A DNA stretch of 64,000 nt, taken from positions 124,001-188,000 of the forward strand of contig JYFJ02000049.1 in NCBI GenBank assembly GCA_000934665.2, in the 5' to 3' direction. A program made the translations under genes and the position numbers. The first letter of the stretch is position 1. Every line of letters starts with the position of its first letter. The notes beneath the pieces were generated by a model that saw nothing but the letters and a program-made list of their open reading frames with translations, did no database searches and had not been told where the DNA came from. This DNA is from Catajapyx aquilonaris. Its lineage: Eukaryota. Shown here in pieces: positions 1 through 64,000 of the stretch.

Positions 1-2222
1 TCTGACTGAAAATGCGTAACGAAAGTACCATTGTTTTCTAATAGTAAATCAGCAATTAAACTTTCCACTTTCGAGGACCCCTGGAGACAGGTTGAAGGCC
101 GATGACCTAGCAGTGGTCCATCATGCTCATATCTGTCACGATGACGTAACCCAAAGTGCGAAAAGGCCCTCGTTAGCGTATGTGAAATATAGTCTCAGGA
201 CGGGCATCGACTTACCACCTGGAAACAGTTACTCCCACATAATTTCGGACCCCAAAAAGCTGCCGCCCCTGCTTCGACTTACATAATAAAATGCTGTAAT
301 CTGAGAACTGGCCTCGCGGGAGGATGGGGCATGAACACACACACACACCAAAAAAAAGTGAGCTGGGCCGGAGAAAAGAATCTAGTTGGGGAGCAGCGTG
401 GGTAAGTACACACCGAGGCGGCGCAGTTAATTGGAAGCCGTCCTTTTTCCTTCCCTCTTCCTTCCCCCTCCGCGCCATTCCTGCTACTATTTTTCTTCAT
501 TAAATTCCTTGTGGAGCGGAACTCCTCGGCCCAAGTTTCCATTAAGGCCGCCTTCTCTCTCCGGTAGCAAAAGGCTCGCATAAACGCAATTTGGGTGTCG
601 CCAAGGAGGAGACTCGGTTTGTCTCTCTCCCTGGATGCTGCTAGCTGGTAAAGGAACCAAGCCAAGGACTCCACCCACCCGGCACTCCCAATGTTGCCCG
701 AATCTGTTCCTCTTCGACGGCTCCTTTGTAAGCTTCGTGCCAATTTGAGAAACCCAACTGATGCCAAACAACCTGGGAATCAGCTGATGAGGAAAAACCA
801 CGGGCTGCGTGTTCTTATCTCCGCCAAAATGCTCCAACACCAATTTTGTCGTTCCTACGCTTTTAACTAATGAATTAAAATCTAAAATTTTAGCCCAAAA
901 TTATTGCATGCCCACTCAAGCACTACCGCAAATAGCCAGATAAATAATCGGGTGGGAAAAAAAGCAAGGCGCGAGTATATTTATTTTTGTCGGTTTCCAA
1001 GGCCACACCTTTATCAAAAAGTCAGGCACGGACAAGCTGCGATCCAAGAGTTACGAGCCGCAAGGGCATTTTCGTGTACAATTCCGACCCATTCCAAGAA
1101 TAGGCGCGTTTGGACATTCGTGCCGGTTCCACGAGCATAATGTCGCCTGTTTGGGGTAGTAGCCAGAGTATAGCCACAGCAGGGCAAGGTGGCTGCATTA
1201 GCAAGGTGAAATACGACTGCACCCGACTTTTTGCGCTAATCACTCTGGTGGATCTCACTCGGTTTGTGTCCTAGACTCAGGGAACCCAGGAGAGGAATGG
1301 GCGAACGCGGATAGAAAAATGGGAAAAGCATGTGTGGCGTGCAGCATGCACATGTGGCCTTCATGCACGGGTCCCCCAAAATTTTATAGCCAATATTTTA
1401 TACGTTTTATTCCCATGGCCCACCACCCAGGGTGGGCCGCAGAACAAGAAAATACGCGGCCCATAAAGTGGGCAGTTATGCTGTCCGAATGCATTGCGAT
1501 CCGGGCCTGATTTCCTGCGTGTCTGCGGACTCTATCTCACACCGGGCCCCCCCAAGGTAATCGCCTATAAACTCCTTTATGGCCCGCAGACACTGCGCCA
1601 AAGTTTTCACGATATCAGTTCAATGGATTTATTCTGTCGGGGAGATTGGGCACACGCCACCCCTGACAGTCGCTCAGTACAGTTGCTCCTGACTCAATAC
1701 ATTGTGGTTCACCCTGTACATCGATTTGTGCTTACCAAAACTACCGTGGTCTCAGGTTTCCAGTGCAATGCACGTGATTTTTTTACAGTCTAAATTATAC
1801 CGGATGCAACATTGTAAAAACAAAATCTCCATTAATTTGGATGCTTGCAACCGCATTTGTGCACCGCCTATTATTAATGCGGATCAAAATAGTAACAAGA
1901 TAATAGGATAGCGTGGCCTCCGGCTGCAGATACAAAGCCCTGGGAAAATTTTCTAAACTTCCCTCCCAAAAGCACAAACTCTGAAAGGCCATTGTACACT
2001 AATGGCTCAAACTTGAAAGCGGTCAGAAGGGTCTGCTGCTACCCCGGCTGCCTTTAGGATTACTTTGTTCAAAGCTATTCCAATAATACGGTCCAACCTA
2101 CAGGAATTTCCATTGACAACGTCTTTATTCGGCCCTAAACCACGACCGACTGCTCTATTTATTCTAGACATTTTAATCGGCCGTATTCTACTGACAGGAA
2201 GAATGAGTTATTAAAGCAGTTA

Positions 2223-2275
2223 CAGGTTGATTCATAATTGCGAACTTCCGCACAAAGTTATTATGAAACACCCTG
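2223..2275. mobile_element. 53-bp Tc1/mariner-type miniature element (degenerate)
   Basis: ACAGGTTGATTCATAAT (2222-2238) matches the reverse complement of 2260-2276, ACAGGGTGTTTCATAAT, at 15/17 positions, with an inner AACTT/AAGTT pair. Left flank is TA, right flank TT. CAGGGTG ends are typical of mariner-like elements. Confidence 0.55.
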
Positions 2276-5200
2276 TTGTAATATCAGGGCATCGACCAGC
2301 TTGCCCTTAATAATGTCGTATTACTTTAGCCCGGAAAAATCAAAGCAGGTTGAAATGAATTGCCGTGAATCACATCTGCTGCAAGAAATCAGAGTCTTCT
2401 TTCTCTCTTTTACCCTCCTGAAAGTGTGGTCCCCATGGAGACACGCTTCTGCCACGCTGCCTTACCGACCCAAAAGCTCGGCTGCGCGTGCAAGCAAGCA
2501 AGGGAAAGCCTACAATGCAACAATCATTTCGCGGTGGGGGAAAGGATGGTTGGGGGCTTCATATTCGCCGGTAATCCCACTGGGAGCAAGGAGGGGCTTT
2601 TGAGAAAAGAGAGAGGTTCCTTCCTCTGGTGATGAGCGATGAGCTCTTCTTCTCCTACAGCAAACAATCCTCCTCGTCTTCCTCCCCGGTGATGAAGAGG
2701 ACGCAAGCATTAAGGGATAGCAACCGCCTCAAAAGGAACTTGTCCTGGCCCAGAAATTGATGGCCAGCAGGAAAGGCAACGACTGCTTCAAGATATTGCT
2801 CTTGCTAACAGCTTACTCAGGAAAGCCCCCCCCCCCTCCTCTCCTTTTCTTATAACCAGACCGCTGAATCGGCCCAAAATCCTGCCCTCGGATTCAAGAC
2901 CTACACATCCACAGTCTGCATGAGACAGTTAAGCAATTGGCGCCACACACCCCAAAAAAAGAAGGAATGGCCTCTCTAATGCATAAAGTGGCCAAAGTCC
3001 GTGACAAAAACTCGTCCTCTCGGCCACAAATCTGCTGAAGAGACACCTCGATGCCATCACCAACACTACGGAGCTGGAGGGTGGAAGTGTATAAATCAAC
3101 TGCAGCCCCTTTCCCCCTGAAGACCTTTCGTAAAGAGGGATATCAGCTTGTAAAATTACCTCGCTTTGCTATTAGAAACAATCTTGCGGGAGCTGAGCCG
3201 CTCACTCACTCGCTGGGCATTTTTCATCCTCTCTTTTGCATGGATCCCTCCTACGCAGGCTTCGAATATATCTCCCTACTGGGACACCCCTCCCCCCCCC
3301 CTCAAAGCCAAAAAATTTGTTTTATGGAGCTATATCATGCCGCTGATCCCATCCCAGTTGCGGAGGGAGATCAATTGGGATTAAGGGACGGTGGAATATT
3401 AACGTTGGCTTGGGATTTAGCCAGCTCGCAATATGAAAAGGAAGGAGGGGGGAACCTGCTTTCTTCTTGCGCTACTTTCTTGAGAAAAGGGGGGAGGATG
3501 CAAATGGCGGTGGAACCAAAGACAGGTGCGGCACATGGAACCAACGAGAGTCGTTTCAGGAATGTCACCATGTCCCACAGCCTTGCAGACCTTTATTTTC
3601 CCAGCATGGATGCTCCCATCTAATACTGGAGCCCTGGATCAGGATCCTCCTCAGAGGGACATAAAATGGGCCTGGTTTTATGACTGTAATGGATGCAATT
3701 TGACGATTAGAATAACCACAAAAGGTGACCCCCTAATCCTTAGAATCGCCTGGAATATAGCCTGTACAGATAGTCACCAGAGACCCAAAATTTAACATCA
3801 AAAATCGCATCGTCCGGCATGAAAAATTTGAAACAAGCATTAAATATATTAATTGAAAAGCCATTTTTGCTTTTTGCGTGTGAATTGGGCATTTTTCTAG
3901 ACATGTGATCAAAGAGGATATATATTTAATTACAAAAAAGGCTGTACATATTAGACACACACAAAAAAACACCAGTAGTGACGAACTACTGGAGTGCACG
4001 TAATGGATTGGACCAATTCACTGAATCACTCTTTACGACAGCCTCACGTTAGTTGATCCCTTAACACCACTGCAAGTTACACCAATTCAAGTACTTAGAG
4101 TCATCGTACATGATCAGAGTATACTCCAAGGAGAGGGAGAGTGATTGAACACAATAAAAAGCAAGGGGGCCCGCACGTGTCAAAGTGGAGTCCACGAGGC
4201 TCTCTTTCCAAGGCAGCCTGGGCTGAACCGAAGATAATGTTCCACTTTGCGGTGACAAGCCCGGAATGGCGATCCATGAAGGCAATAATCGTGGAGCCAA
4301 GTGACCGGTTGGAAGGATGCCCAGACATTCAACAAAAAGCGCCCAGCTCGAAAAACTTTTCTCGTAAGGGTCTCCCCCTCCCCCAACAGGCGGCCTTGGA
4401 GACAAGTGTATGTGTAATGACAGCGCACGACACTTGGGGATCAGGAATCTCGCGCCATATTTTACCTTCCAACAACTAACTCAAACGCACTTTGCTGTCA
4501 ATTTGGGTGGAAAAACAGGGAAAGAAGATTGCATTCCTGGGGAGACAGTGATATGTAAGGGGGTCTCCGATCCCTGTGAAATGAGATTCGTGCATAGTTC
4601 AAAATGAAACCAGATGAATGAGAAGAGAGAGAGCAGCACCGCCGGAACACAAAAAAACGATTACGCGGATTTCTCGTGTGCCGAAAGCTATCATCCAAGA
4701 ATCCCTTTAATTAAACCGCCCTGACGCCACGCCCGTATATACCCACCAGGAGAAAGATTGTATAAATCCAGGGGATTACGCAGCCTCCTATATACCGAAA
4801 AAGAAGGCCCCTGCCTTCGCAACTGCACCATAAAGTTGCTGTTTAACTCATTAGAGCCGGCGAGTGCGGGGTTGGAGCCAAAGGTAACTTACTCTCCTCC
4901 ATCGCTAATTATCCCAACTCGTTAAAAGCTCGTTATAAAGAAAACTGCTCGTTCGTTTCGTGCCGTGACAATTGCCTCCGACAATGAGCATAACTGAACT
5001 CTAATTAACAAGGGATTTGCCAAGTTACACCTCCCACCCGGGGAGTGAAATTTGAAAATAATTCGGATTGCTCTAAAAGTTTGAGGACAAATGAACTTTG
5101 AGCATCACCCTCTCACAAAAGAAAGTCTGACTGGTTCTACAGACTCTCCAGATGTATGCCTAGCACTTTCCTGGGTCGACAGCCCCTTCGGGATAAAGGC

Positions 5201-8200
5201 TAGTAACCTCTCCGCATCTGAAAATTATTGCATCAAGTGTGGTGAATAATGAAGCGTTTCAGGCACGAGTCCATCTGACGTGCGTGGTCCGTGTTAGAGA
5301 AACACGACCCCTCCGAGTTGCATTGGTTGGTTGGGTCTCCTCCTAGGGCCAGTCCCCAGCAGAAGAAACACACGCAACCGTCTGGCTATTAGGCGGCCAA
5401 GGCGGATTTATCGAGGCAGTCCAGCTGGTTATTGCTGTCGAATGGATGGTCTCCAAGGCGATATGAGTCCTCCGGCAGGCGACGAGGCCCTAAACACAAC
5501 CGAGCTCAATCTCCTACCTCGTTTGTCACCGGGGCTTTGTGCCACTTCCTCCCCGCCAGCAAACAAGGGGAATGGAGGTAAAGGAAGGAAGGAGGGGGGA
5601 AAAAACTTGGGACAAATCTTGCGAATGAAGTCCACCGGGCGTCTTAAGGCTCCGGTGCCAGCCCTTTTTACTGCCTTTTTTCATGCTCTAATCCTGGCCA
5701 CTTGTGTCTTGTCACACGTCATTTTCTTAACGAAACATACGGAAAGGGTTGTTCCGCTCAAACCGATTGAGAAAGGATTGAACGAATCCAGTTTTATAGT
5801 ATGTCCTTACGAAAAAGCCATGATACTGTGAACAATTTGTCGCGTAAATATAACACACCAAATGTGCCGGAGCAATTATTATTATATAGCAGGTGATATA
5901 AAAGTATAAAGATATACCGTACAAGCTAAAATAATGCAGGGTCATGTCCAGTCCGAACTTATACCTCCAAGAAATTCTTATCTCAAGCACAGCACCTTTT
6001 TCCCTAACGGCGTAAGAATTCTGATTACCTCTCTGGTATATACAGTATCCGAATCTGAGCCGCTTTTGTAATGCAACCGCACAGAGTCATTTCCTGGCAC
6101 CCTCCTGGAGTTCCTCGATATTTCTTTCTCCCCAGGCAGGCAGGCGGGCGGGCAAGCAGCTGATTATTAAAGAAGCGGAATTATGCAGACGTGGCTCGCC
6201 CAAGGAGCAGCTCACTTAAGCCATCATTACTCACGGCAAGATTAATGGCGGGCAGGCCAAGCTAAATTGATTGGCACAATCGCGGCTGCAGGGGGATGGA
6301 AGGATGATACCTGCTCCCCGTGGCGACCGAGATATATCCCCCATTCCCTCAGCCCAACACCGACAAGAATCTCCATCATTCCCACCCCCAGCCTCACCCC
6401 CTCCACGTCGGATCAGCTCAACCAACCAACCAGAATCGCAAGTCTGATTGGGACTGCTTCACCCATCTACTTCCAAGGCAGCCCCCAAATGCCATGGCAA
6501 TGAAACGCAGCAGTTAATTGCAATTTGCTACTAACACACCTGTATATAGGTCCACTCCCAAAATAACTGGTGTAAAATAATACTCCAGAGAGTTATGAGT
6601 TGAAAAATGTGCGTCCCGTACTGATTGCCTCCTATAATCAGTTCATGAAAATTGCAGCAGTTTGCAGCTATTGTATGCAAGAGTGTCACGCAATTTGCAA
6701 CCGATCATGGTCTATCCATTTATAGTAACTTTTAATGCGGGACATAACGTTTGTTGGCATCAACACAAAGAGTGCTGGTAATTAGGACCCATGCCAGCAC
6801 GCTTGTGGGTACAGTAATGCAAATATTATTGACTGATTCACCCCCATCTGGCAAGATTTGTCAGCAGCATTTATTTGTTTGAACAGCCTGCAGCAAGCGA
6901 CACGTTTTTGCCTAACCCTACACGGTACGCATACGTACAAAATCTGACCGTGTTATTACGCTGGCCGCAGGGAGTGCCCCTTATGGGCTAATAATGAATA
7001 ATAATTCAAGCTCAAACTGCCGCGGCGGTCAATTTACCCAGAGTGTGTATGCAAGTGCACGCGAGGCCCCCTTCAATATTTGCATCAAATCACTTTCAAT
7101 TTGCCACCGTGAAAGCTGATTGTGTTGGCACGCAGGTGAATTTTTAGCTCTCAGACTTGAAACGGCCTGTGCCAATTGTGCTAGCCCGAATTTGGCCAAA
7201 AAAATATCAAAAAAATGCCGGTGGTCTGATGAAATTGTCAAAATCACGCATTCATCAAGCTGGGCTTTCGGGTCAGCAGGTTCAGCCCAGTACCGATGGG
7301 ACCGCTGCTGGGTTTTGGTGTTGACACAAGGCCCCGCGCATGCACAAAAGACAAACACTTGGAGCCGGCCCGAAACAATCCCGTCATTCAAAATGCGACG
7401 TGGAAATCATTCCCGAAGCACGGAGGAAGGGCCTTGTGATAACAAAAAGCTGGGTGCCCCGGTCATGTTGTCAGTCGTGGGAAAAAAGCCGAGTGTGCTG
7501 GCAGGCCCAATCGCGTAATGGCGACAAATTTCCACGCGAGGGTCATCCAGCTCCACAAAAAGCTTCCACTCATTGAGCTATTACAGGGGACCCTATCCCC
7601 CCCTGTTTATTGTTGACATTCCTTCCCCATCCCCCTGTTACTGGGCTAGCCTCTCCATCTGCGATTGATGGCAGCCGCCTCGGGGTCCACTCGACCCTGC
7701 TTTTGCGCCTGGGTTGCACGCAACACTGCAGCTCAAGAGAGGAGCCATGGTTACCTCCAGTCCAGGATGAACAAAAAAAAAATTAGTAGCCCCCAATGAA
7801 TTCTGGGGGGATAGTGGCACCCTGACGATGGCTTGTAACTTCCCCGAAAAAAAATTGCTGTTAGCTGCTATAGTTTCCCCCTAGGCCCGTCGCATAGCCC
7901 CAGGGCCTTATCCACAACCCCTGAAGCCCACAGACATGCTGCCTACTGTAATTAATAATTATTGTTAACCCGTTGCCGCGGCCATCGTCACGTGGGATCA
8001 GGACATGAAATTGGAAAAGCATATTAATGTAGCTGCTAATGTGCGACAATCTGCGTTGCGTTTCCCAGTGTAATTGGATGTGGATTTTAAGGAGAAATAT
8101 TGATCCTGCAAATTAAACGGGCGGTGCCTGTTATTAATAAAGCAAACATAAATATATTAAACCGATTTTGTGAACAAACATCCATGGCCACGAATCTGAT

Positions 8201-10433
8201 CGACGCTTCATCCTAAATGCAACCAACAATAAAAAAGGCGCAGTATTCGAATGGAACCTGCTCTTTAAGATTTGATTGGAAAATCATGCGCAAATCCGGT
8301 TTTCATTTATATGCAGCGCAGCACTTCAGGGCCTTAATTTTCAGCGTTCAAATAGCAGCAATTTTAAACTGAAAAGCTACACCGTTCTCTTTATTTCCAG
8401 GCTGCGTAAAAAGTGTCGGGGGCCAGAGTGCAACTGGATGAGTTTGCATGGATTGAAGTCGGAAGGAAGGAAGCTCCCGTTGAGAAACAAGCTCGTCTTG
8501 GTTCCCCCAGTGCAATCAGCTAAGAACAAAGGTTGGAAGGCGCGCCACGAGCCCCCGGAGACATGTATAAGGTGGGGGCCCCCACGCATTTAGAGCCTCG
8601 TAAACCCCCCTTCCCATCCCCTTAAACAAGCCCCCCAACTAAGGCAAGCAGCCTGTGATTCAATCACCACCTCCTTCCACTTCAGCTCTACAATCCGCAG
8701 ACTAGATTTCTCAGCAGCTTGCAAAATTTAGCTACTCGACTTTGCACTATCCGGAAGGAAAAATGATTCCGGGCTGTGTCATCTCGGCTCAGCTTAATCG
8801 AGGCCATGGGAACACCAGTGGGACACTTCACAAAATTTACACCGCCGTAAAATTCCTTGCGTTAATTAATTAATATTAATACTACTGTGCATACTGCGGA
8901 ATTTTGTCAATTGCGGCACAGAGGTGGTCGCACTCTGGACATTTCCGTCTCATTTCATTACATAAAATAACGCGTTCAATTTACAATACCAAAACAAATC
9001 GATTTCCAGCCTCATCCTCTAGAGTCTCGAGTGAATCTAACCCAAAATGTTGAAAACTTGGCCCAGAATCGGTCCGATTTTGGTAAGTGGTCTAGACTGG
9101 TTCGAGCCTTGCGGGGAGTACGTAGGAATATGCAAGAGATAAGTTGGTCGATTTGAGTTGCAAATTTCCAGAACGGCAACAGCGGCGGCGACGTTTGCGG
9201 GGAGTAGGTGGGAGGTAGGGGGGTGGAGAAGAAACTATACCGTGTTATCTCCTGCATAATAACCGCCCAGGCGGAGTAAGTATCTTGTTCCAAGTGACGC
9301 CCAAGCCGGGTTGGGTCGTTAGTTTCGCCCAGGCTCCTTGCAATCATGCAATGCACCGCTTTTCCCTCCCATCCCTAATGTCCCTTCTCCCCAAGAAAAT
9401 AATGGCCCTAGCAGCCTCTTGCTTCGCAGACGCAGCATCCGATGTGTAATTGCCAATACACAAGTTCGGGTGGCCCGAATTTATAAACCGGAGAAGAAGA
9501 AGAAAAAAAAAAATGGCAGCATCAATACACAGCACACTCTGGCGGCAGCGTCCTAGAAACAAGTTGGCAAGACATGCTCCATCGATAAAGGCTGACGGGT
9601 CGGATGGGGATTTAATTTGATTTTTAATTCCTGCTCCAGAATTAGCTTCCAGAATTGCTAAACTTAGGGGTCTGTAAAAGAAATTGGCTCCTTACCGTGG
9701 TTTTTACGGGGGTTACCTATATAATATTTCTGCCAGCTTAATGAGAACTCTTTTCAACAACCCTCCCTCGGGCTGCCTTATTGAGGGATTAAGATTTGGC
9801 ATCAACGCTACGCCGTAATAACCCTCGCTAATAAATGATAACCCCACCCCTTTAGCCCGCCCCTGTTTCACACCTGCTCTCCCCCATATACTATACCCAC
9901 CAGCTACAGCTTTTACGATGCCGTGTTGCCCTACGAACGCAAACGACATTAAAAATTAATCCGCCTCCTCGGGCTCTGTGACGCTTCGAGATGCGCCTCA
10001 TATTGGATAGAAAATATGCGTTCGAATAGTTCATTCCATCTTTTTCAACAACAACAGCAAAAAAAATGTAATCTGAACTTGGCTATATAAAAGCAGGGCC
10101 CGCCATTAATGTTCCCTCGCGCATGGCGCCTCTATTCAAAATAAGTGACATTCTGGAATGCGGGAAATGCCCGGATATTTTCCCACCCTTCTGGCGAGAT
10201 GTTTTAGCACGCAACTCGGTGAAAATGACGCGAAACTTCTCCCCTCCCTCCCCCCCTCCCCCCTCCCACCGAATAAAACTTGATATGAAATCCAATTTGT
10301 TGTCGACCAAATGAAAATTCCTGCAGGGTTGATGGTGCAAAGGGGGGGGGGAGTTTCCCCAAGAAAAGCCAAAACGTAGAAAATGGGAAGTGTTGGAAAA
10401 AGGAGGTGGGAGGGGTGAAGATTATTTTTTGGG

Positions 10434-10459
10434 GAGAGAGAGAGAGAGAGAGAGAGAGA
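10434..10459 (+). repeat. (GA)13 microsatellite
   Basis: Read directly from the sequence. Confidence 0.97.
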
Positions 10460-10766
10460 AAGTGGGGTTGGTTGCATGGATGGTGAGGTTGGGGGAGGGA
10501 AGGCCCAATCTGCTAATGCGGCTATGGCGGAAGTTGCGTGCGGTGTGCGCCAAGCCTCTTTTGCCCTTCCCAACCCAACTTCCTCCTGGGAAATGGGAAT
10601 CGGGCCCTTGCTCTCAATACAGCCAATAACGATGATTCCATCAAATGCTAATCCGGTATGAGGATGGTTCCCCCTCCGCCTCTTTTTTTTCTCTCTCTCT
10701 CGGAAGAAGAGGGGGGACATGTAGATACTGCGGTGTACAGAGGGGGAGACTGATGAATCCATGTCC

Positions 10767-10782
10767 GGATGGATGGATGGAT
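10767..10782 (+). repeat. (GGAT)4 short tandem repeat
   Basis: Read directly; followed by a degenerate GGGATG. Confidence 0.85.
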
Positions 10783-11695
10783 GGGATGCAGATGCTGCTT
10801 CACGGTTTTATAACCTTTGCTCATGAAGGTTAGTCACTCATCAATGCACTTCAGTTACTGATGGTTAGGACTTTCATCATTTTACATCATGTTTACAATC
10901 GGTATAGTCAAGCATGTTGTCACGTTTAGTATCCAGTTGGTCCATATAGATGGGCTACCTGCTGGGCGAGCATCCTCTCACGTTGCTCAACCAGAAGGCA
11001 GTGGAGAGAAATAGGAAAGAATGTTCAGAGTTGGCTGCGCATCGATCCATAAGTGGTGGAAACCTTCCAGGCCAGCAAAGCAGAGGGCAGGTCGCACAGA
11101 ACCCGGACAAAACAGTGCCTCTGCGGTGCTGCTGCAGCCGGATTTGCGACGAAGCTTGTGGAGCCCGGAATTTCACCCGGAAATTTAAATCCAGGACATT
11201 CCCCCGCCGCGCCGCTCGCTCAAAGAGTGTGTGCTATGCAAACTGGGGAAGCCTGGCACGTTACGAGCGTTACAGGTTGAGTACGTTATCGTCATGCACA
11301 TTCATGCTGTGAGGGTCAATGGACTACAAAAAAAACTGCTGGCTTCTAAAGGCACAACTAGCTCCTATAAATCATTATAAACGTTGCATGTGCGCTAACC
11401 ATTAAACCATCATCAATTCAACGCCATTTATCCAGGCTACTTGCTGCATGCCAGCGATATACTGTAAATGAAAAATTAACTTAGCCGAAGATTAGTTTAG
11501 TCGTGCAGGTAGCAACAGCATGCTATTCAAAACAGCCGTTTGTTTTCGGTCTCATTCCACTTTACTGGCTAAAATAATTTATTTGCAAATACTCTCTTTT
11601 CAACATTGGTATTTTTCATATCGAGTGGCTCTCGCGTCATTTTTTTCTTTAATTCGATTCAATCACGTTATTTAGAACTGCAATTGACTTTTTAA

Positions 11696-11822
11696 CCCTG
11701 TAATGGCCCTTGGGTCATATCTGGCACACCATTTAGTGCAATTTGGCACTTACAGGAAATATAAAAATTGCAAAAATTGCACTAAATGGTGTGCCAGATA
11801 TGACCCAGTGGGCATTACAGGG
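11696..11822. mobile_element. 127-bp piggyBac-type MITE
   Basis: TTAA on both sides (11692-11695 and 11823-11826), CCC…GGG termini, 49-bp terminal inverted repeats (11696-11744 and 11774-11822) with 3 mismatches, and a 29-bp spacer. TTAA duplication with CCC/GGG ends is the piggyBac signature. Confidence 0.9.
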
Positions 11823-12598
11823 TTAAGCAATTTGGAATTAAAATTACACCCAAAAAGCATTGGGTGCCATTTCAACTGCTAAAAATAATTTACAGAACAC
11901 AGTAAGCTAATCCTGTACTCATAATTCACCCAGTTACGACCAGCCTACAAGTACCACAACCACACGAGCAGACTAATAGACCTTGTATAATTGCCTTCCT
12001 TCGCTCCATATTTTAATCCATAATGCGCGTATGAATAAACAGACTCCCCCACCACAAAAGTGTCTAGACAAAAGCAGGCCTGCAGATATAAATATTTACA
12101 CACGTCGAACGCTGCTAAATATGCTCTGCCCGCAAACAGAATATTTTAAAGGGTCATTTCCCAGTCCAAATAACGGTGTAATTAGAGTGATGAAATAGTT
12201 GCGGGTGACAGCGCGGTCGCACACCGCCCATAAATTAAGCAACTTTTTTATTACTCGCTCGTCATGTCCCCCCCTCCCATGCAGATCCTCTGTTTTTGTG
12301 ACTGTCTCCAAATCACTTTTTGTGCGTCTCATTCGCTTGTTCAGCAAGTTCCTTCATTACTCCTTCGCAGTTTTCTCCCCATCTCTCCAGCACTTTTTGC
12401 TTCCTAGCAGCCTATACACGACTAGAGTGTATATAGTGTACTACTTTATGGAAGGACACGAAAAAGTTTTATCTGACTTGATTAGCCGTCGCGCTAAGGC
12501 TTCGCGTAAAAGGACGGCTTGTTTTTGATGCATTATAGAGGTTCAGGAGATATATCCTTTCCCTGGGAGGGTTATCGAACTCTGGTCAGTAAACCCAA

Positions 12599-12604
<6 letters not shown>

Positions 12605-12636
<32 letters not shown>
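12605..12636 (+). repeat. (GA)16 microsatellite
   Basis: Read directly from the sequence. Confidence 0.97.
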
Positions 12637-12639
<3 letters not shown>

Positions 12640-13605
12640 AAGGGAATTTCTTTTGCATTCCCTCTCCCTTTTCCCCAAAAGGCAGGTACGTATAATGATC
12701 GCAATACTTTTTCGGTTCGGTGTTCATCAGTTCTTGTAAAAAAAAAAAAAAATCGATGGCCATTGTGGGGGTCGGCCAACTATTGGGGAGGGAAAGAAGA
12801 AGGGGACGTGAACAACCTATAAAAAGGACGTCTTTTTTGGCGACTGGTGGTGATGAAAAGCTGCAGGTCAAGGTGGCTTCCTGAAGACGGATAGCACCAA
12901 ATGCATGTCCAAATTCCACTCGAGGGGGGAACCACCATTTTTTTTAGCCCCTCCATCCCCTGCGAGGCACAGATGGAACATTTTTATTGCCTGAGGGGGT
13001 ACGTCAACACATTTTTCCCGCCCTACCGACAAAAATTTCTGACAGTTTCCTGACCTGACGCACCGGCATTCCAGTCGATAGGCACCTACAATTTTCCAAA
13101 TAAAAACAGATAGGATAAATAACCCCCCTCTCCGAATGTTTGCTCTGCCATATTAATCCGATGGATATCCGTTCCGAAAATATAACGCGTGTCATGCCAG
13201 CAGGAAGCAAAGGCCATTCCCATTGTGGCCTGCTGATGTGTATCTCAACTCGTGTGCCCAGTTTTGAGGTGGAGTGCAACAGGGCGCCAGGGTGTAGCTG
13301 TATGACAAATTCCGTGCCCGGCAGCGAGTACAGGTGATTAAATAACAGGCTCGTAATCATCCATGAGTTGTGAATTTGATCACCGAGAGCGGGCGCCTGC
13401 ATACGTCTCAGTAATCAGGCAGGGTTGAATTATTCATGATCTGCCGAGAAACCAACCTAAAACCCCTTCAACCCCTGATACTCAGTCCCGACCACAAAGA
13501 CCTGGAGGCGAATGCACCCGGTGTCCAACCACACGAGGCCTGCAGCACCACCCCGCTAGTAACGTCATAATGCAAGCGAGATAACTCGATTCGTACAGTA
13601 CTCAC

Positions 13606-13637
13606 TGACCGTGGAACCACTCGGAGAAACAGCTTAC
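13606..13637 (-). other. 32-nt cryptic RS-exon downstream of the ratchet point
   Basis: GTAAGCTGTTTCTCCGAGTGGTTCCACGGTCA is followed by the consensus donor GTGAGT (13605-13600). Its length is not a multiple of 3. Confidence 0.55.
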
Positions 13638-13666
13638 CTGCAAAAACACAAACATACAGCGTTAAA
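13631..13666 (-). other. Recursive splice site (ratchet point): juxtaposed acceptor and donor, junction at 13638/13637
   Basis: The minus strand reads TTTAACGCTGTATGTTTGTGTTTTTGCAG|GTAAGCT. Branch motif TTAAC (A at 13662), U-rich tract with no AG, and CAG immediately followed by GTAAG. Same strand as the host exon. Confidence 0.7.
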
Positions 13667-15924
13667 TGTGACTCGGTGTGATGCTAGACTAACATGTTAT
13701 ACGGTCTGGGCGTCACAAAGTGCCATAAAGAAAATTGCTATCATGTTTCAACGACGACAGTTCTGACTCTTAATGGCCAAGACAGGGGCGTGGTTTAATT
13801 TAAAACGAGGATGATAACACTGCACAGAAATTTGACACTGGTAAGCAAAATCCAAATATTTATCCCTCCAAAAGAATCTAACGGAATGAATGTACCATTT
13901 CATTCAATATAAAATTGAGTGATTACTGTAATACACCTATCAGTTTTGCACTGCAATATAAGGTATGAAAAAAACAGCAGTGTCCACGTAAAAGTAACAC
14001 ACCATGATTATAAAATGCATTCACCAGAGGCAGAAATTGTGTTATTCCACACAAAACCACACCACACATAGGCTGGCACACCATAATAGCATAAAATAGT
14101 ACACGTAATTGTGGCATTCAAGAGCCAGGCCATTTTAAAAACCCTAAATTGTAATAAAGTTAAGGCATACATTGCCATACCCCCCCAATCACACAGGGCG
14201 AAATGCAATGAAACGAATGCCGGTTGCGTATTGTACTGGCACACAAACGCACCTGGTTTAATTCAGCAAATAGAACCCGGCGGCGGCTTTCCAATCCCTG
14301 CACCCTCAAAAACTTCCTGATCCTTTTCAAAGAATAAAAGTGCATCCCTCAGCAGCGCCGCATAAGAGGATTAGAAGGCAGCTCCGGATCACAAGACGCG
14401 CAGAGGCAGAGAGACCGGAGACAGCACCAGGGGAAGACCAGTGCTTGGTAAATATTGATTCCTATCCCTGCCACGAACAAGTGATGTTCATCTTACTTTT
14501 GACACCATTCCCGCCACCTATTCTGCCACCTGCTATCGGATTCCGATGGTCTTTCTATCGATCATTCCGTCCCCTCCTATAGCTGCTAATCAAGAGGCTC
14601 TTTATAAGCTAGTCGTAGCCAGAGGACGCTTCTGGACACTTTCCTCAGTTTGTTCTAAAAAAAGAGAGACATTTGCGCGGTGGGGACAAAAGTTTGGCAA
14701 TAAACAAAAGTGAGAGATATAAAAAGTGCATGCAAGAATATTGCGCAAACGACACCCTGTGGACCGACTAGCTCGCTCGCTTTCTGAAGAAGTGTTTGCA
14801 AGTTTTTCCCTATCCCTGCTGCTTCTGCCTGTGTTTCAGCAGCACCTCCCCAACTTTTGTCCCCTGTGCTGTTGCCTAGGCAGCAAGTAAAACAACACTC
14901 GGGGACGGCAACGGGATTAAATAGCGAAACAAACTCGTGGCGACAAATCAGGACCAACTGATCCGGGTGTTACGACTAATTATCCCAGACGGCTGAAGCT
15001 GGCTGCCAAAGGGAACTAACTGGTCGCACTCTCATCTTTCCTATGTACTGTAACGTGAGGTGTTGCCAGCACGTGTCGTGGACCGCTGTATAACCGCAAG
15101 ATCTTACCATCATATTTTCTACTGGAAGTTCCCAGCAGGCACTTGTTATGTCCTCTGAATAGCCAGTTTTCCAAGTCAAATAGTGCTAGGCATGTAAAAA
15201 AAACCGAGGGAAGAGCCCACTCCTGTCCGACATTAGGCTCTGGGCCGTGTCCTAATGGCCTCCGATATATTCCAGCAGCAGACTTTATATGCTCCCGTCT
15301 CGCTGGCAAATTGCGCGACCCGACCTTGTTGGTGCGGCAGCCCCGGAGCCATACAAGCGCCACCAAACACCCCACTTTTATTCACTTTTCCTCGGGAATC
15401 CCACAGGCAGAATTTCCCCCAGATATGGAATATTTTTTTCAAGCCCTATGCAAAGCCAATTTTTACGTCTAGCAATCACTCTTTGACCCACCTGTCGTCC
15501 ACACATGTCATCCGATCATCCGAAAATCCGGTCCCGTCACTTGCCAACACCACTGCAATGCGATGCCCAGACCACCAATTCCTTCTGCCTGTCTGCATAT
15601 ATCAGATGTTTCCTTTCTCTAGCTATCTCTCTCTTCTAGCTCTAACTGAAGACCCGTCTACCCCCCCTCCAAATGAACCTCCAGCAGGGAAGTAAACAAC
15701 GTGGTTCCCAGCTCCCAACTCCTCGCTCCAATTCGTTCCCGATCGCCGACAGGGAAATCGTTTCCGGATGCCTGATCATACGTTTCCTACTAAGTGTCCA
15801 AAAAGAGACGTCTCGCTGAGAGAAAAAGGAAATTCATGGACGTGCCGCTCAGTTGCAAAAGTAAACACAAAGAGGAAAGACGCACTGAACCTTAACGACC
15901 AACGCTGGCTGTAACGTGCCCGGA

Positions 15925-15999
<75 letters not shown>
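15925..15999 (+). repeat. (AAT)25 microsatellite
   Basis: Perfect trinucleotide array; it explains the poly-Tyr and poly-Leu ORFs in the track. Confidence 0.98.
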
Positions 16000-16001
<2 letters not shown>

Positions 16002-17330: not shown

Positions 17331-18845
17331 ATTTCCTTCTTCATTTCTTGCCCTGTAGCAACATCATCAGCGTGACGGACGTGGTTGTAAGGGGTCCTGC
17401 TTAGCATCCATAATAGCAAGTTCTGGCCATCCCGTTAACAAGGCTGGGCGTATCTGTGTCAGACGCCGAGAGCAGTTCATCACCCGGGCAGCCCCGCACT
17501 TTTTTAATGCCCCATCCGAGATGCTGAGGGAATATGCACCGCCCAGCACATTGCCTCATCCCCTGCGCGTAGGCTGCAGATGACGACCATTAATTTCGCA
17601 TGCTCTTGGATGGAACCATACCACCAGCAAAAGCGCGGGGGCCTTGTTGGCCCAGAAAACACGGCTGGACCAAATTTTTCCGTGCATGATAACGGCAGTG
17701 GAAAGACAGCGTGTAATATTTGCAATATCAAAGAGAGAAATGTAGGGCTGTGAGTGAAGCCGGCCCGGGCTTTTGTCAGTGAAATCCCTGGAACAATACT
17801 AGGAATTTGATTGTACGGGCTGATTTCCACGTGTGCATTTTCCATGCCAGCCAGGGGATATGGAGAGATGCGGAGATCCAGCTTATGGAGGACAGACAGG
17901 CAAGTTCCGCCGATGAACTGTGTAGCAGGGCAGTGCAGTGTTGAAAAGCTCTGAGCAAATCCTACTGGGGGCCCCATGAGGCAGCCAGCTGCAGCTGCAT
18001 TTGCAAAAGGCGGAAGCAAGGCAGCTGGGGCGTTGGTCCCTCCCAAAACCAAGAAGAGAGCCGCTAATGGAGCCTGCAATTGCCCACACACACGCCAAAC
18101 ACAATGGCTCTCTTTTCCCCTCCCAACCAAACCCTAGCAGCCTCAGCTAACCCAGTCAGAGAACGTTCGTCCAAGGTGTAGACTATTTGCTCCTGCTGAC
18201 AGCAGATGGGCCCCATCCACATGTTGGGCCTCTCAAAACACCCTGCTGAATCCATAATTACAGCACTTGTCCACACTGAATCAATATTGGCCAAGGAGTG
18301 TTCCTGTACTATGGGGACACGTGTCTGGTTGCTGTTTATTCCAACATGTATACGTTGTAACGTGTGTCAACCGCATAATCATATGTGAGCCAGTCACTGA
18401 CACCCCCACACGCGGCGTGCGGCAATCACTATGTAATAACCATCAGAGAGCCTGTGTTTAGGCTCGCTGTATGAAGGACATGTCGAAAAAGTGTCACCGC
18501 TGTTGCCATCACAGCCCGATAATTACAGAGATTCATCCTACAACTCTTCCATAGTACAGCACATAAGCACAACGAAAATTAAAGCTCGTGTACAGGTTCT
18601 TACTACACAGTTTATTATAGGACAGTTTTTTTTTGTTTGCAATAAGTGGAATCTCTAAAATCAGTTGCTAATGTAGAATTGGCATATCCTCTTTAGAGCA
18701 GTGGAATCTATAGCTTGCCAAAAATTGGTTAAGCCATTGATTTCGGCTGCCAATGCGCCAAAGCGGGCAATTCACACGGTCTTGAGCTCAGAGATTCATG
18801 AAAAATTCAGTGCATGAATAAATGTTTCCACTCAATCTAATACTG

Positions 18846-21295: not shown

Positions 21296-23026
21296 GATGT
21301 TCTTCGGGAGGGCATCGATTATAGACCCAAATGTACAGTACATGCAATGGTTGCACTAAAGATGTAAAGTGCACCCGATTGTGGATATCCCTAATCGATG
21401 TGCAGTAACCGCGAGTGCTCACGGCACGTGGTCAGCCAAATATTCCGCGTTAAAAAAAAAGTCAGCAATTGGGGGGCCATAATGTTTTTAATGCTTTGCA
21501 GCTACATGGTGGGCCATAAAATAGCAGCAAAAATCGAGTCGCCAGGGATGCTCCACATTCCCCCCCTTTTTGCCGAATTGGCTTTTGACTTTTCGCGCTC
21601 GTAAAACCAAAGCTGGTGGGTCATAAGTTCTGTGGAAGGCAAGGGTAACTTTTATTCCCTGGTATGGTGGACATCGCTTCTTGCATGCATTGCCTTGGAA
21701 AGAGAGAAGTTTTGAGGCGCATAAATCTTTGCCGGGAAGAATTTCGTGGGCCGGACGACGCCTGACATATTCGCGAGACGACGCATCAAGACGCCTGTGC
21801 GCCTCAGGGGTAATCCATCAGGAGGAGAACAGGAGATGTAGGAGGCCCCCACCGCAGTTCGAAAACCTGGATTTAACTGCCGCCATCCAACAACAAATCA
21901 CGGCTGATAAGGTTGCCGCCGCGACAGCTCCTCGCAGCTTTCTTCACAAGCACTTTCTGCGAGTCTTGGCTTCTCAAGTCGCTTTGGAACTCTGCCACCG
22001 ACGAACAATCATTTCACAAACCTTATCTTACCTCCTTCCCCCTCCTCTTTCCTATAGAAAAAAAAGAAGAGCTGGGTCCTATAGAAGCATCATCATAAGT
22101 TGGCTTCGCACAGCCGCCATCTGCGACTGACGCTCTAAAACTTGGGGGGTTTTTCAGCGCAGGCAAACAGTTTCGAATTACTGGTGGTGTCTGTGCGCTG
22201 GCCAATTTGGAATCCAATTTCTTAGCCAACAAAAAAGCCCAAGTTTGCCTGATAATGAAACACCGGGGGAGTCTGCTTCCATGCGATTGTGCGAGCGCCG
22301 ATGTGCGTGTGTCGTTCCCCAGGGAAGCGACGCATTGTATGGAAACTCTCCCCACTTTTAAATGCTATGGGCGTTAATTGCCAGCCTTTGTGACGCCAAG
22401 AAGGTGACAGTCGACTCCCCCTCCTGTCATGGTCCAAAGAGTTCCTCTTCTTATTCTAAGGAGGCTGGGACTGCAGAAAAGTCTTGCCGCTGCCGCCTGC
22501 TTGGCCGTCGGCGCAATTGCAAAAGTTCGCACTTCTCTCCCAGAAGGCTTTTGTTTGCCCTCCACCTTTGTTGGGAGGCGGTTCTCACTCAACTGATGGA
22601 TGGCCCCACGCACTTGGCCAAAACTAGGGGAAAAGGAAACGAAAAAAAAGAAGGAAGAAGGGGGTGGAGGAGGGGGGGGGAGTCCTCGCAACTTCCCACC
22701 AATTCCAATTTCCGCCTTCCTTTTCTTGGAGGAATGGTTTCCACTTTGTCACTTCTCTCCGTTAATCTAATTCATTAAGGTCTCCCTCCCCACCCTCCAT
22801 TTCCCCCTCCAGATTTTAAAGACTCGGTAACAAATATTAACTGGAGCATCGTCAGAGGAAAGGCACATTATTTCACATTACTCTGCAATTATAAATTGTT
22901 GAAGTGCTTTTCAAGTGCCAAGACATTTTATGCCCAAAGTTTTCTTAGGCAACCGCAAAATCGGCCCTTCTTCGTGGATAAACATGAAAAAATGGGATTT
23001 AAAATGAGATTCTACGTGGGAGAGCA

Positions 23027-23055
23027 TCTCTCTCTCTCTCTCTCTCGCTCTCTCT
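23027..23055 (+). repeat. Interrupted (TC)n microsatellite
   Basis: (TC)10, then GC, then TCTCTCT. Confidence 0.9.
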
Positions 23056-32000: not shown

Positions 32001-35000
32001 AACTAAAAACCTACGCATCACATACCAGTGATCGGGGCTCACCATATATTAAATGATTAATTCATAATTTTAGCCACAACTTCCTGGAATTTTTCGGTAT
32101 ACTCCAACAACTGTATATGCCATGTAGAATACTTCTGAGTTAAAAATCGGAAACATAACTTTTCGGCCGGATAATATTTTAACACCATTTAACCCGCCTC
32201 CTTGCATATTGTACGCAAAAAGAGCACGTTGCTTCCGAGTAAGGTCAACCACTATAAATAATAAACCGTGTAATTCAGCATTACGGAAATCCCAGCAGGA
32301 AATGGCTGTACATAATCCTGAAGCTTTAATCGCCTCCTAATTACGTATAACTTTTCAAACACATCCCTTCATCACGACTGCAAATACCTGAAGCGTATAG
32401 TGGCATGACACTGCTTTTCACCTCCAAAAAAAAAATTACGCTGAACCTGCTTGCAAAGTCAGTCTTTATCCGACCGCGTGACATCCGACGCACCGCATTT
32501 TTCCGTACATTCCAGCAGGGAGCAATCTTGCAGAGAAAATGTTAATCACATGGAGATGCAAGCAGCGGCACAAAAGGCCGCAAGCCTTTGCCAAACTCCA
32601 CGCCTAATGGTTTCGGAATAGTTGGTAGCAACCGCAGGCCCCGTACACACACGCTCTCTCTCTCTCTATAGATGTATGCGAGAAGGGAAATGGACTAGGC
32701 GGGAGGGGAAAGAGATGCACGCTGACAGTAATGGAACCAACACCATTTTCCGCACGGACCGAATAACAAATCTCGTTAATGAGGCCATCATTAAAAATTA
32801 GAACAACTGGACTTCCTCGGGTCCGCCAGCGCACAAAAGCTTGACTTCTAGCCCCGCCATGCAATATCCAATGCTATGACAATGAGAGGGGGTGAAAAAA
32901 AAGAGAGCATTCATTTGCTGAACACCACCAGTGCAGCCTATATACCATTGCATCATTGTAATTAACGCACTGTTCTAACAGCAGTATCGGTCCTACACTC
33001 TGCATGTGACAAAAAATTGTAGGAGTGCGACAGTAGGCTATATGCTGCATAGTGCGTAATCAGAGATTTTCCATTAATTATAGATACCCGTATTACACTG
33101 TGTACAGAGCCATGTAATGTTGCCTATATGTAACATCAGATTGCGTGTCATAAAGAATTACCTGACATCCTTTACCCAATGCACTTCCGCCAGACTGCGT
33201 GTGAGTGTTTTTGTAAGATAAATTATGACACAGTCTGTGGCGCCTGAATGACACTTTACATTTCTGAACAGGACGAGGCGCATTAACAAGTTAACAGGTT
33301 GAGAAAACACTAACGAGGGTGTTTTCTCGGCACACGGCATTTCATACAGCGCACATAAATAAGCAAAAGTTCGACTTGCAACGACGACAAGCCCGGAAAC
33401 CTAATCTGATTAGATCCGGAAAAGCTATAGTCCTGTAAAGTTGGAAATATCTGCCATAATACCGGAGCTGCTGGAAGTACTGGATTAAAATGCGGCAGTT
33501 GCTCAGGAGCTAAATTGTTCGGGTGTATCCTAACGACTGCCAGCGACCAAGTCAGGGGCAAGATTAAGACGACTGTAACAAGCTTCTTACGAGGACTTTA
33601 GGTGTGTCGTAAAGGTTAAGCCGTCTTCAATTTGTAGCCCGATAAAGAGAATCTCAGAGACACGTCCGATGAGCCCGCCATGGAGTCTACCAAAGTACAG
33701 CTACTAATTGAAGTCAAAGGAAAGAAAAAAAGGTTCGCCATCAGTTTTCCGCCTCCGTAAATTCTACAGTACATTATAAGAGAGTCTGTCATAATTTAAT
33801 TCCATGAACTTCGCATACCAAAGGATATTTGACCTAAAGGCTATACAGCCAAAGTAAATCACGAGGCTGATAATAAAACATTCAAAATCATCATGTGGCA
33901 ATCCAAAATGTTTATACCACCAATTTGTACTATTCTTCCGGCTATATTTTTTATGGCTTCCAGATATTGGACCCGATTAAGCAACTTCAATATTGAAATC
34001 CGAGTCGCTCTTTTTCCACAAAGTGCTTCGACCCTGCCCTCAGGAGATTTACCATCCTCATCAATAAAATCTCGCAAAGTTTCCAGGGTTTTGTGCGAGG
34101 GCTTCCCACACTGACTTTGTGAGTTATTTTTCTCCTTGCCATCCCCTATGTGCTAGCCCCACGTGCGTTTTCCAAAAAGGAAGGGGGGGGGGGGTGCAAG
34201 AAGCAAGCAATTTCTAGGGACTTATCGTGCGGCACATGGTTCGAGAGGCTGATGTTGGGCCCTGAAGGCAGGCCAAATGTGCATATAGTAACCATGAGCC
34301 GAGTGGGATCTCGTGTTCATCTGACGGAATATGCTGGGGAAGGTAGCAGCCAGCATGCCTGGAAGATTGGATTACCAGCACCACCTAAATCCATTAGGTC
34401 CAGGCGGTACGCTCTCCACCCCTACAATAAATGCCGAGAATTAATCTCCGAAGGGACTATCACGGAAAAAAAATCCAATAATGTACTGCATCAACGCATA
34501 AACAATCGGCGCATACGGGATCACAAAAAAATTATGGACAAAGGGCGCAGCTGTTCCTTCGTTCATTGATTCCTGTTTTAATAAAATGCGAGTAACGCCA
34601 ACTACAACTGCAAGCACTCTAATTGTTTCCATTCCAATAAGCCTTTTTTTGTACTTCCTTGCGAGTGTGTCAGGGTTGCCAGATTCCAGCATCCAATACT
34701 GCAAGTCGAGTCGAGGGAGTCCCAGAAGAGTGTGGCCCTAAACTAGGCTGACAGCTCATAAATTACTGGCTATTGTGCTAATCTTTCATAATGCTTGTTC
34801 ATCACCGGACAATTGGCGGCCACTGAAAGGGCCAACAAAGTTTGCAGTTGGGAGTAAGTGGGGAGGACCATGGGTTGACTCGAGGGAACCAAACCAGCAG
34901 TCAAGTTCATAACAAACCAGTAATAAGCATAAATTCTCATGCAATATATATTCATGCCTTCAAAAACAGAATTTCTGGCCACACTGCTCAGAACCGAAGT

Positions 35001-38651: not shown

Positions 38652-38717
38652 CTTGAATTCCTTTTGCTCTTCAGCACTGCTGGATGTTCCACCTTCCAGG
38701 GTTCCTCCTCGATGCTC
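38652..38717 (-). CDS. Candidate 66-nt phase 0-0 internal exon encoding EHRGGTLEGGTSSSAEEQKEFK
   Basis: Minus strand: ATTCACCCACCTCTTGTCTTTTCAG|GAGCAT…GAATTCAAG|GTAGGA. Branch-like TTCAC, strong pyrimidine tract, purine-rich body, length divisible by 3, and no stop in the phase left by the 63014 donor. No firm homology. Confidence 0.4.
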
Positions 38718-45400: not shown

Positions 45401-45608
45401 CTGCCCTATATCAGATGATGGTAAATCCACCTCCTCCTAATGCTCTCCGCGAGCAAATGGTCCGATATCTGAAGATCTTTCCCCGAAATGCACAATCCGT
45501 TCTCCAAGGGGAGGTTTTGTAGGAGACCGCAGAAGACAAGGAAAGAGGTACCGAAGCCACCGCCTCGATGCAAAGCCCCGCTTCCCAAAACTAATTGCTT
45601 CTTCAGCT

Positions 45609-45611
<3 letters not shown>

Positions 45612-45653
<42 letters not shown>
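45612..45653 (+). repeat. (CT)21 microsatellite
   Basis: Read directly from the sequence. Confidence 0.97.
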
Positions 45654-45656
<3 letters not shown>

Positions 45657-63014: not shown

Positions 63015-63413
63015 TCTGGCCCCCAGCTGTTCGACGGCCCTAGCCTGCCTCTCCATCTGAGTGTGCAGACCGGCCATCTTGAGCAGCAGAGACCTCTCTC
63101 TGTGTCCATAGCTGGCGGCCAGCTCTCGCAGGTGACTCTGCAGCAGAGCGATCTGTTGTTGCTGGCACTGCACGAAGGTCTGCAGGACCCGCAGGCAGTT
63201 GTGGTCAGCCGGGTTGCGCTCCACCAGCTCCAGCCCGTAGGGGTAGCTGGCCACCGCAGCCACAGACGGGCCCAGAGCTCCCGGGGTCGTCTGGCAGGCT
63301 GACCCACACGATGACCCAACACCACCGGCCACCGATGAAGGCCACTCGCTGGGGCCCAGGCTGGCCGGACGGACCATGCCCTTGCCAAGGGTGTTGCTTG
63401 TCGACGACGCCAT
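63015..63413 (-). CDS. PDZRN3: Coding exon (133 codons from the ATG) of a PDZRN3/PDZRN4 (LNX3/4, Slip1)-like gene: low-complexity N-terminus, TRAF-type Zn-finger remnant, coiled coil. Partial gene; no PDZ exons found in the window.
   Basis: Seen: open frame with many G/C-ending codons (CTG GAG CTG GTG GAG CGC AAC CCG…), ATG in GAGATGG context at 63413, and donor AGA|GTGAGT (GT at 63014-63013, phase 0), after which the ORF loses its codon bias. The peptide HNCLRVLQTFVQCQQQQIALLQSHLRELAASYGHRERSLLLKMAGLHTQMERQA aligns without gaps to my recollection of human PDZRN3 [54 protein letters not shown]. The GLE-x8-HNC part also resembles RNF41, but GHRERSLL favours PDZRN3/4. The symbol is family-level and unverified by search. 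Confidence 0.7.
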
Positions 63414-63477
63414 CTCACAGATACCACCACTCCAACTACTGCCTAGGGTCACTGCGAGTGTACGGAGTGTAAGGTCA
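63414..63477 (-). other. Candidate 3' splice site and 5' part of the PDZRN-like exon (exon would start at 63451)
   Basis: The minus strand reads TGACCTTACACTCCGTACACTCGCAG|TGACCCTAGG: a branch-like TGAC, a pyrimidine-rich stretch, and AG at 63453-63452. 63451-63414 is either 5' UTR or in-frame coding sequence joined in phase 1 to an upstream exon. Confidence 0.45.
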
Positions 63478-64000
63478 CTACGGTACGGTATTAAATTTTT
63501 CAGTACTGGTTGTGATCATTTACGTGCAAATTTCAGAGGTAAAATCGACCGACTCTTGCAAAGGCAGCTTTAGGCAGAATAGATTATACTGTATATGTAA
63601 GTCAAATCCCCGCTCGAGACAAAGGGTGCATACATTTGGAATCAGTTAACCCCTAACTCCGTAATGCTTCCTAAAGCTTCATAACACCTGCTATAATACA
63701 TTCAGGCTTAGAATTATAGCACCGACGTCACACCTCTACTTGTTAGTTACATTGCCAATATTCATTGCGAGGTCATTGCTAGCAACCGACAATTAATATC
63801 CTAAGTTCACAACTACTTGTATACGTGCAGTACGTGGGCATTACTGGTACTTTTGTTGCAATTAGGGTGGTGCCATTCTAATTGCTGACTTGATAAATCT
63901 ATCACATATGATTACAAATTCAAGTTGCCTCAATTAGTGCCCGTAGAGTTGTGAATCAATATTTCAATCTTCCTACTCGTTCTCGCCAGCTCATTAACCT

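Follow-up and report, generated by a model that had tools for sequence, protein, structure and literature searches.

In a 64,000-nucleotide (nt) stretch of genomic DNA from Catajapyx aquilonaris (contig JYFJ02000049.1, positions 124,001 to 188,000; hereafter the window), the only recognisable gene is represented by a first coding exon on the minus strand (exon 1) that is related to the PDZRN3/PDZRN4 family. On the same strand, 49.4 kb downstream of exon 1, a splice acceptor is directly followed by a splice donor (AG/GT, the slash marking the splice junction), and a second donor a short distance beyond would close a small cryptic recursive-splicing exon (RS-exon). This AG/GT is tentatively interpreted as a splice-competent element on the sense strand that may be used recursively; the gene would be a PDZRN3/4 relative lacking the RING finger, and the intron around the site a very long one. 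It is a motif-level candidate for a well-known mechanism.

The junction and its putative host gene

On the minus strand, the parts of the motif all occur in the right order and at the right spacing (Table 1). The TTAAC element, matching the yUnAy that we take to be the branch-point consensus, places a candidate branch A 24 nt upstream of the G of the acceptor AG, and direct reading finds no AG between TTAAC and the acceptor. With a tract of 13 pyrimidines in 20 positions, CAG/GTAAGC agrees with the recursive-site consensus (Y)nNCAG/GTRAGT, and the putative RS-exon is, as expected of such an exon, short, out of frame and closed by a downstream donor (GTGAGT at +32). Read in phase 0 from the acceptor, this exon comprises 11 codons followed by a TGA that overlaps the downstream donor. 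The original prediction, made from the sequence by eye, had located TTAAC, CAG/GTAAGC and the GTGAGT at +32, and all were recovered base for base at the positions it gave; the tract that it described is AG-free as claimed, but with six G it is U/G-rich and not purely U-rich. An ATG (13655–13653, minus strand) also lies within the tract; the frame of six codons that it opens (MFVFLQ) reaches the CAG/GT junction in phase 0.

Table 1. Minus-strand features at the putative recursive splice site and in its putative host gene (window coordinates).
Feature	Coordinates	Strand	Details
Branch-point-like TTAAC	13661..13665	-	Read directly; candidate branch A at 13662
AG-free U/G-rich tract GCTGTATGTTTGTGTTTTTG	13641..13660	-	12 T, 1 C, 6 G and 1 A of 20
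Juxtaposed acceptor and donor CAG/GTAAGC, putative ratchet point	13632..13640	-	CAG 13640–13638, GTAAGC 13637–13632; junction between 13638 and 13637
Putative cryptic RS-exon	13606..13637	-	32 nt, not a multiple of 3; direct reading
Downstream donor GTGAGT (TCA/GTGAGT), putative RS-exon donor	13600..13605	-	32 nt past the first GT
Unverified 66-nt candidate exon	38652..38717	-	Phase 0 to 0; acceptor 7.8 bits; donor AAG/GTAGGA, 4.21 bits
Exon 1, first coding exon in the window	63015..63413	-	133 codons from ATG, ending in phase 0; donor AGA/GTGAGT

Exon 1 starts at its own ATG and has a low-complexity N-terminus; only 587 bases upstream of this ATG fall within the window, and further upstream exons could lie outside it. 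A full HMMER search against 1.84 billion representatives returned 11 relatives of exon 1 (E ≤ 0.001), the best of them 49% identical and without a name. Several are ‘uncharacterized’ decapod proteins of 150–225 amino acids (Penaeus, Macrobrachium, Petrolisthes) with no Pfam domain. Another (P0011; E 2.2e-4) is a fragment in which a RING finger and a Sina/TRAF zinc finger are followed by the homologous coil, and the relatives of this fragment in turn (24 matches, E down to 6e-78) are all named PDZRN3 or PDZRN4, bar one product that has no name. Pairwise, exon 1 aligns with residues 146–210 of a PDZRN3-B-like protein of Ptychodera (26/65 identical, 40%; E 2e-13), in which the RING finger occupies residues 17–54 and the first PDZ domain (PDZ1) begins at residue 245. 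The coil ahead of the PDZ domains, found between the zinc finger and PDZ1 in PDZRN3/PDZRN4, is thus the part of the family protein to which exon 1 is homologous; as exon 1 ends ~25 residues short of the expected start of PDZ1, a long intron is to be expected after it.

Other parts of the family architecture were sought within the window. No match to an N-terminal RING finger or Sina/TRAF zinc finger was found in any scanned open reading frame (ORF), no PDZ domain was found among the 436 ORFs scanned or by tblastn with 24 PDZRN3/4 proteins, and these 24 full-length family members matched exon 1 alone. For exon 1 itself, Pfam gave nothing credible, PDB sequences gave nothing, an Atlas search gave only matches of score 0.79 to unnamed clusters, and no homology to the tails of the decapod relatives was seen. 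The gene may thus be a RING-less PDZRN3/4 relative whose PDZ exons could lie beyond coordinate 1, or it may encode a short protein from which they are absent, as in the short decapod relatives. The original prediction of a PDZRN3/4-like host stands for the homologous coiled coil, but not for the RING finger, zinc finger and PDZ domains, which are not in the window; the two exon ends that it proposed do fall in real donor contexts (AGA/GTGAGT after 63015 and AAG/GTAGGA after 38652).

The short decapod family (150–225 amino acids; P0003–P0029) shares the coil between the zinc finger and PDZ1 of PDZRN3/4, and is without RING finger, zinc finger or PDZ domain. In appearance, these proteins are LNX3/4-family relatives or isoforms that lack the RING finger; in their sources they are named only ‘uncharacterized’ or ‘hypothetical’.

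Strength of the junction and its transcriptional setting

Every AGGT on both strands was scored with a position-weight scan combining acceptor and donor, with frequencies that were rough approximations and not a database model. The junction at the site scored 8.56 bits and the next best 4.09 bits (among 175 minus-strand and 158 plus-strand AGGT sites), a margin of ~4.5 bits over every other AG/GT in the window. The site ranked first of 334 AGGT in four of five variants of the acceptor model and second of 334 in the variant weighting C and T equally, and the original claim that it is the only strong AG/GT on the minus strand is borne out by the distance to the next best score. The more restrictive YAG/GTRAG occurs only four times in the window, twice on each strand; among these four, the site has the best tract (13/20 pyrimidines; the rest have 8 and 11/20), and it alone has a GTRAG 15–105 nt downstream. 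Taken separately, its acceptor scores 4.97 bits, a value reached or exceeded by 59 of 3877 minus-strand AGs, and CAG/GTAAGC scored as a plain donor (7.23 bits) is one of two among 3633 minus-strand GTs to reach at least 7.2 bits. The full score of the putative RS-exon donor TCA/GTGAGT is low (1.32 bits) because its exonic side is poor. If the upstream exon is the unverified 66-nt candidate, the donor rebuilt by splicing to the site (AAG/GTAAGC) would score 6.86 bits, compared to the 1.32 bits of the RS-exon donor.

The base composition of the window is compatible with a long transcript on the same strand. Across positions 1–63014 of the minus strand, G exceeds C by 5.9% (z 10.1) and T exceeds A by 5.2% (z 9.5), with a nearly equal skew in 1–13600, 13601–38650 and 38718–63014 and with agreement in 29 and 30 of 32 bins of 2 kb, respectively. 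Transcribed DNA is known to carry more G and T on its sense strand, a pattern of uncertain strength in invertebrates. The uniform skew fits one long minus-strand transcription unit that would extend across nearly the whole window and through the site.

Features that would mark other units were searched for on both strands. The 287 minus-strand ORFs of at least 42 amino acids in 1–38829 gave no credible Pfam match (three stray, sub-threshold and unrelated matches), and neither did a further 149 ORFs from both strands; the scan covered minus-strand ORFs of at least 62 amino acids above 38829 and plus-strand ORFs of at least 80 amino acids, so that shorter exons would be missed; 11 plus-strand ORFs of 80–85 amino acids and six that overlap exon 1 were not included. 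The window contained no Rfam match, no tRNA, no internal repeat of at least 60 nt and no transposon-type ORF, and the region of the site is not repeated within it. This lack of other recognisable features in 63 kb fits one long intron. Counting the 66-nt candidate as a true exon, the host intron would span at least 38.6 kb; without it, the minimum rises to 63 kb.

Possible recursive use and its alternatives

Under recursive splicing, the 32-nt cryptic exon would be defined from both ends, by U2AF/U2 on TTAAC, the U/G-rich tract and CAG and by U1 on the GTGAGT at +32, and the upstream exon would be spliced to 13637. That splice would rebuild a donor, composed of the exon end and GTAAGC, which would beat the weak TCA/GTGAGT donor, and in a second step the 32-nt exon would be removed together with the remaining intron. 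Were the rebuilt donor to fail, the frame-shifting 32-nt exon would be kept in the mRNA, a switch of the kind described for Bx and kuz (PMC8605326). The anatomy, the strand, the presence of an upstream exon and the skew all agree with the ratchet point originally proposed, but the position of the site inside an intron is one that we infer, as no downstream exon was recognised within the window beyond it.

That missing downstream exon is one of several points weighing against recursive use. The gene could end before the site, as the closest relatives of exon 1 are short and have no PDZ domain, and the PDZRN3/4-like label is partly supported, namely for one coiled-coil segment of ~65 residues. 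With exon 1 (AGA) as the upstream exon, the rebuilt donor would score 1.20 bits and have no advantage over that of the RS-exon (1.32 bits). The tract is of modest quality (13/20 pyrimidines, six G), the acceptor reaches 4.97 bits compared to 7.8 for the 66-nt candidate exon, and 32 nt is short for an RS-exon, described as ~50 nt (PMC8605326). The pattern YYYYNCAGGTRAGT, from which the site differs by one mismatch, is matched twice in the window with at most one mismatch, compared to 1.82 matches expected (51/100 shuffles reach two), and between 6 and 101 of 150 simulated strands match the junction depending on the model (4–67%, the upper value under the tract model with C = T). The composite criteria applied below and their thresholds were chosen after the site had been seen, and the weight matrices are approximations. 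The junction alone is not robustly beyond chance for 64 kb.

A chance juxtaposition is nearly as probable as recursive use. The site would then be a decoy, in a long intron or other non-coding DNA, of which the spliceosome makes no meaningful use; the agreement of the pattern count with its expectation and the modest tract both speak for this. First-order Markov strands reached the score of the site in 29/300 cases and, in a separate run, in 152/1000 (10–15% of simulated strands), under a null that is too poor in pyrimidine tracts (32 acceptor-like AGs per simulated strand compared to 59–61 as good or better on the real strands). A semi-empirical estimate gives an expectation of 0.084 per strand (59 real acceptor-like AGs × 0.00142). 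Further, a metagenome scan with a 22-mer across the junction identified two contigs (L001 2001–2023 and L002 964–986) that carry an identical 23-mer in unrelated flanks, where in both cases it reads as a normal acceptor with an open frame behind it; the string is thus nothing special in itself, and these matches say nothing on conservation. Chance accounts less readily for the company the junction keeps. A GTRAGT 15–100 nt downstream has a background of 2.5% of minus-strand positions, and the score of the site combined with such a GTRAGT was reached in 4/1000 simulated strands, or 1/1000 when a branch-like motif was added. The branch-like motif lies at the right distance with no AG before the acceptor, the junction is in sense orientation relative to the one gene recognised, and its score stands clear of every other AG/GT in the window.

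The strength of the site as a plain donor, among the best two on the strand, also raises a conventional but unannotated exon boundary, be it the donor of an alternative first exon from an intronic promoter, a 32-nt cassette or poison exon present in part of the mRNAs, or the acceptor of an alternative last exon yielding a short isoform. The six-codon frame that ends in phase 0 at the junction would suit the first of these. For the last, the 11 phase-0 codons and the stop would yield a protein of ~144–166 amino acids, near the length of the decapod relatives, but the tails of those relatives show no homology and the nearest AATAAA is 649 nt downstream, at a background of ~1 per 865 nt (74 in 64 kb). 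The ORF that spans the site (13471–13683) has no Pfam match, and a normal acceptor needs no consensus donor right after its AG. A conventional boundary is on balance unlikely.

Should the gene of exon 1 end upstream, for example as a short protein, the site would lie outside any minus-strand transcript and the motif would be intergenic. The short relatives without PDZ domains would fit such an end, as would the stop reached 46 codons beyond the exon 1 donor on read-through (stop-to-stop ORF 62877–63515), the restriction of the tblastn matches to exon 1 and the lack of a recognisable exon downstream of 38652, including among the 287 minus-strand ORFs. Against this, the minus strand keeps the same excess of G over C and T over A all the way to coordinate 1. 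The good GTGAGT that closes exon 1 falls where PDZRN3-like proteins have ~25 residues left before PDZ1, and no gene, transposon domain or repeat indicative of another unit was found on either strand. An intergenic position is considered quite improbable.

Precedents for recursive splicing and minor features of the window

Recursive splicing has been described for flies and mammals (PMC6110457, PMC8605326). The ratchet points of flies are tandem acceptor/donor sites in long introns. Their recognition goes through a short cryptic exon (~50 nt), which shows little conservation, is out of frame as a rule and ends at a downstream donor; once the first splice has been made, the donor that it rebuilds wins over that of the RS-exon, and the cryptic exon is removed (PMC8605326). 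Most fly introns >40 kb reportedly contain recursive sites, whose conservation is about double that of control AGGT motifs (PMC6110457). For mammals, only nine fully suppressed intronic sites are noted as definitive (PMC8605326), which makes candidates based on a motif weak in vertebrates, and a 2026 bioRxiv preprint reports thousands of human recursive sites. Between most fly introns >40 kb and nine definitive mammalian sites, the prior for the present site is wide.

Like the Drosophila ratchet points (Ubx, kuz, Bx; PMC8605326, PMC6110457, bioRxiv 10.1101/006163), the site places an acceptor and a donor in tandem in what would be a long intron, and a second donor further on delimits a short cryptic exon that is out of frame. 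The resemblance would extend to a rebuilt donor that outscores the one of the RS-exon, provided that the upstream exon ends in AAG. The site differs from the fly ratchet points in its weaker tract (13/20), in having GTAAGC and not GTAAGT, in the length of its exon (32 compared to ~50 nt), and in being known from sequence alone in an animal that is not a fly. Vertebrate RS-exons in long, brain-expressed genes (Sibley et al. 2015, via PMC8605326; PMC6224609) share the exon definition and donor competition proposed here, but were established from RNA data, whereas the present candidate is a motif. Poison, decoy and pseudo-exons in long introns (PMC7373989, PMC7175933) also present a short frame-disrupting unit with usable splice sites; unlike the site, they need no donor right after the acceptor AG.

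The original prediction knew of no report of recursive splicing in this gene family. The literature search likewise returned no paper pairing recursive splicing with PDZRN, or a recursive splice site with PDZRN3, and the supplements of PMC10156609 and PMC6224609 contained no PDZRN or LNX entries, but a human table (PMC6110456, supplementary file 1) does list PDZRN3 and PDZRN4 introns. This table gives intron coordinates, intronic positions and scores, with 30 occurrences of PDZRN3, 19 of PDZRN4 and 10 of LNX; with 30 occurrences for one gene, it is presumably a list of candidates. Its PDZRN3, PDZRN4 and LNX1 rows share with the site a gene family, long introns and scored intronic positions. 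The PDZRN3/4 family is thus already present in the recursive-splicing literature, and the mechanism itself is well known. No paper was found with crustacean recursive splicing as its topic, the co-mentions concerning, at the level of listings, locusts, flies and fly viruses.

A constitutive ratchet point with a cryptic RS-exon in a non-insect invertebrate, in the long intron after the coiled-coil exon, would, set beside the human PDZRN3/4 rows, suggest that the stepwise removal of the giant intron in these genes is ancient among bilaterians and did not arise separately in flies and vertebrates, a proposal that must be regarded as a long shot. Confirmation in a further invertebrate lineage would help to show whether the RS-exon mechanism is ancestral, and would provide a handle on how introns >40 kb are accurately removed in the host animal. 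Such sites matter for annotation and for the reading of intronic variants because a mutation can turn a silent element into a frame-breaking exon. For the present, the site is a target of modest interest for reverse-transcription PCR or RNA sequencing and does not amount to a discovery.

Three other minus-strand segments drew attention as possible exons. The unverified 66-nt candidate is the sole minus-strand candidate at its own thresholds and has the right size for the linker; no homologue was found in Pfam or among PDB sequences, and as the plus strand yields two overlapping candidates at the same thresholds, it is not more than chance. At 18097–18318, several decapod relatives show weak tblastn similarity (~27% over 66–90 residues, E 0.6–3.5) that includes a CCQQEQI-like stretch; the similarity may reflect decay of a duplicated coil exon or arise by chance, and the segment has no Pfam match. 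At 33460–33525 there is a match, most likely by chance, to the C-terminal 22 residues of three PDZRN3-like proteins from hemichordates (45% identity, E 0.55–0.78); if true, it would mean that a C-terminal exon precedes the site.

Overall, both strands of 1–63000 are unusually ‘clean’ for so long a non-coding stretch, and the ratio of observed to expected CpG in the window is 0.77, an invertebrate-like value. A single N occurs at 55720, and microsatellites of the (GA)n/(AG)n type and a perfect (AAT)25 array are found at 10434–10459, 12604–12636, 15925–16000, ~45607–45658 and 23026–23055.

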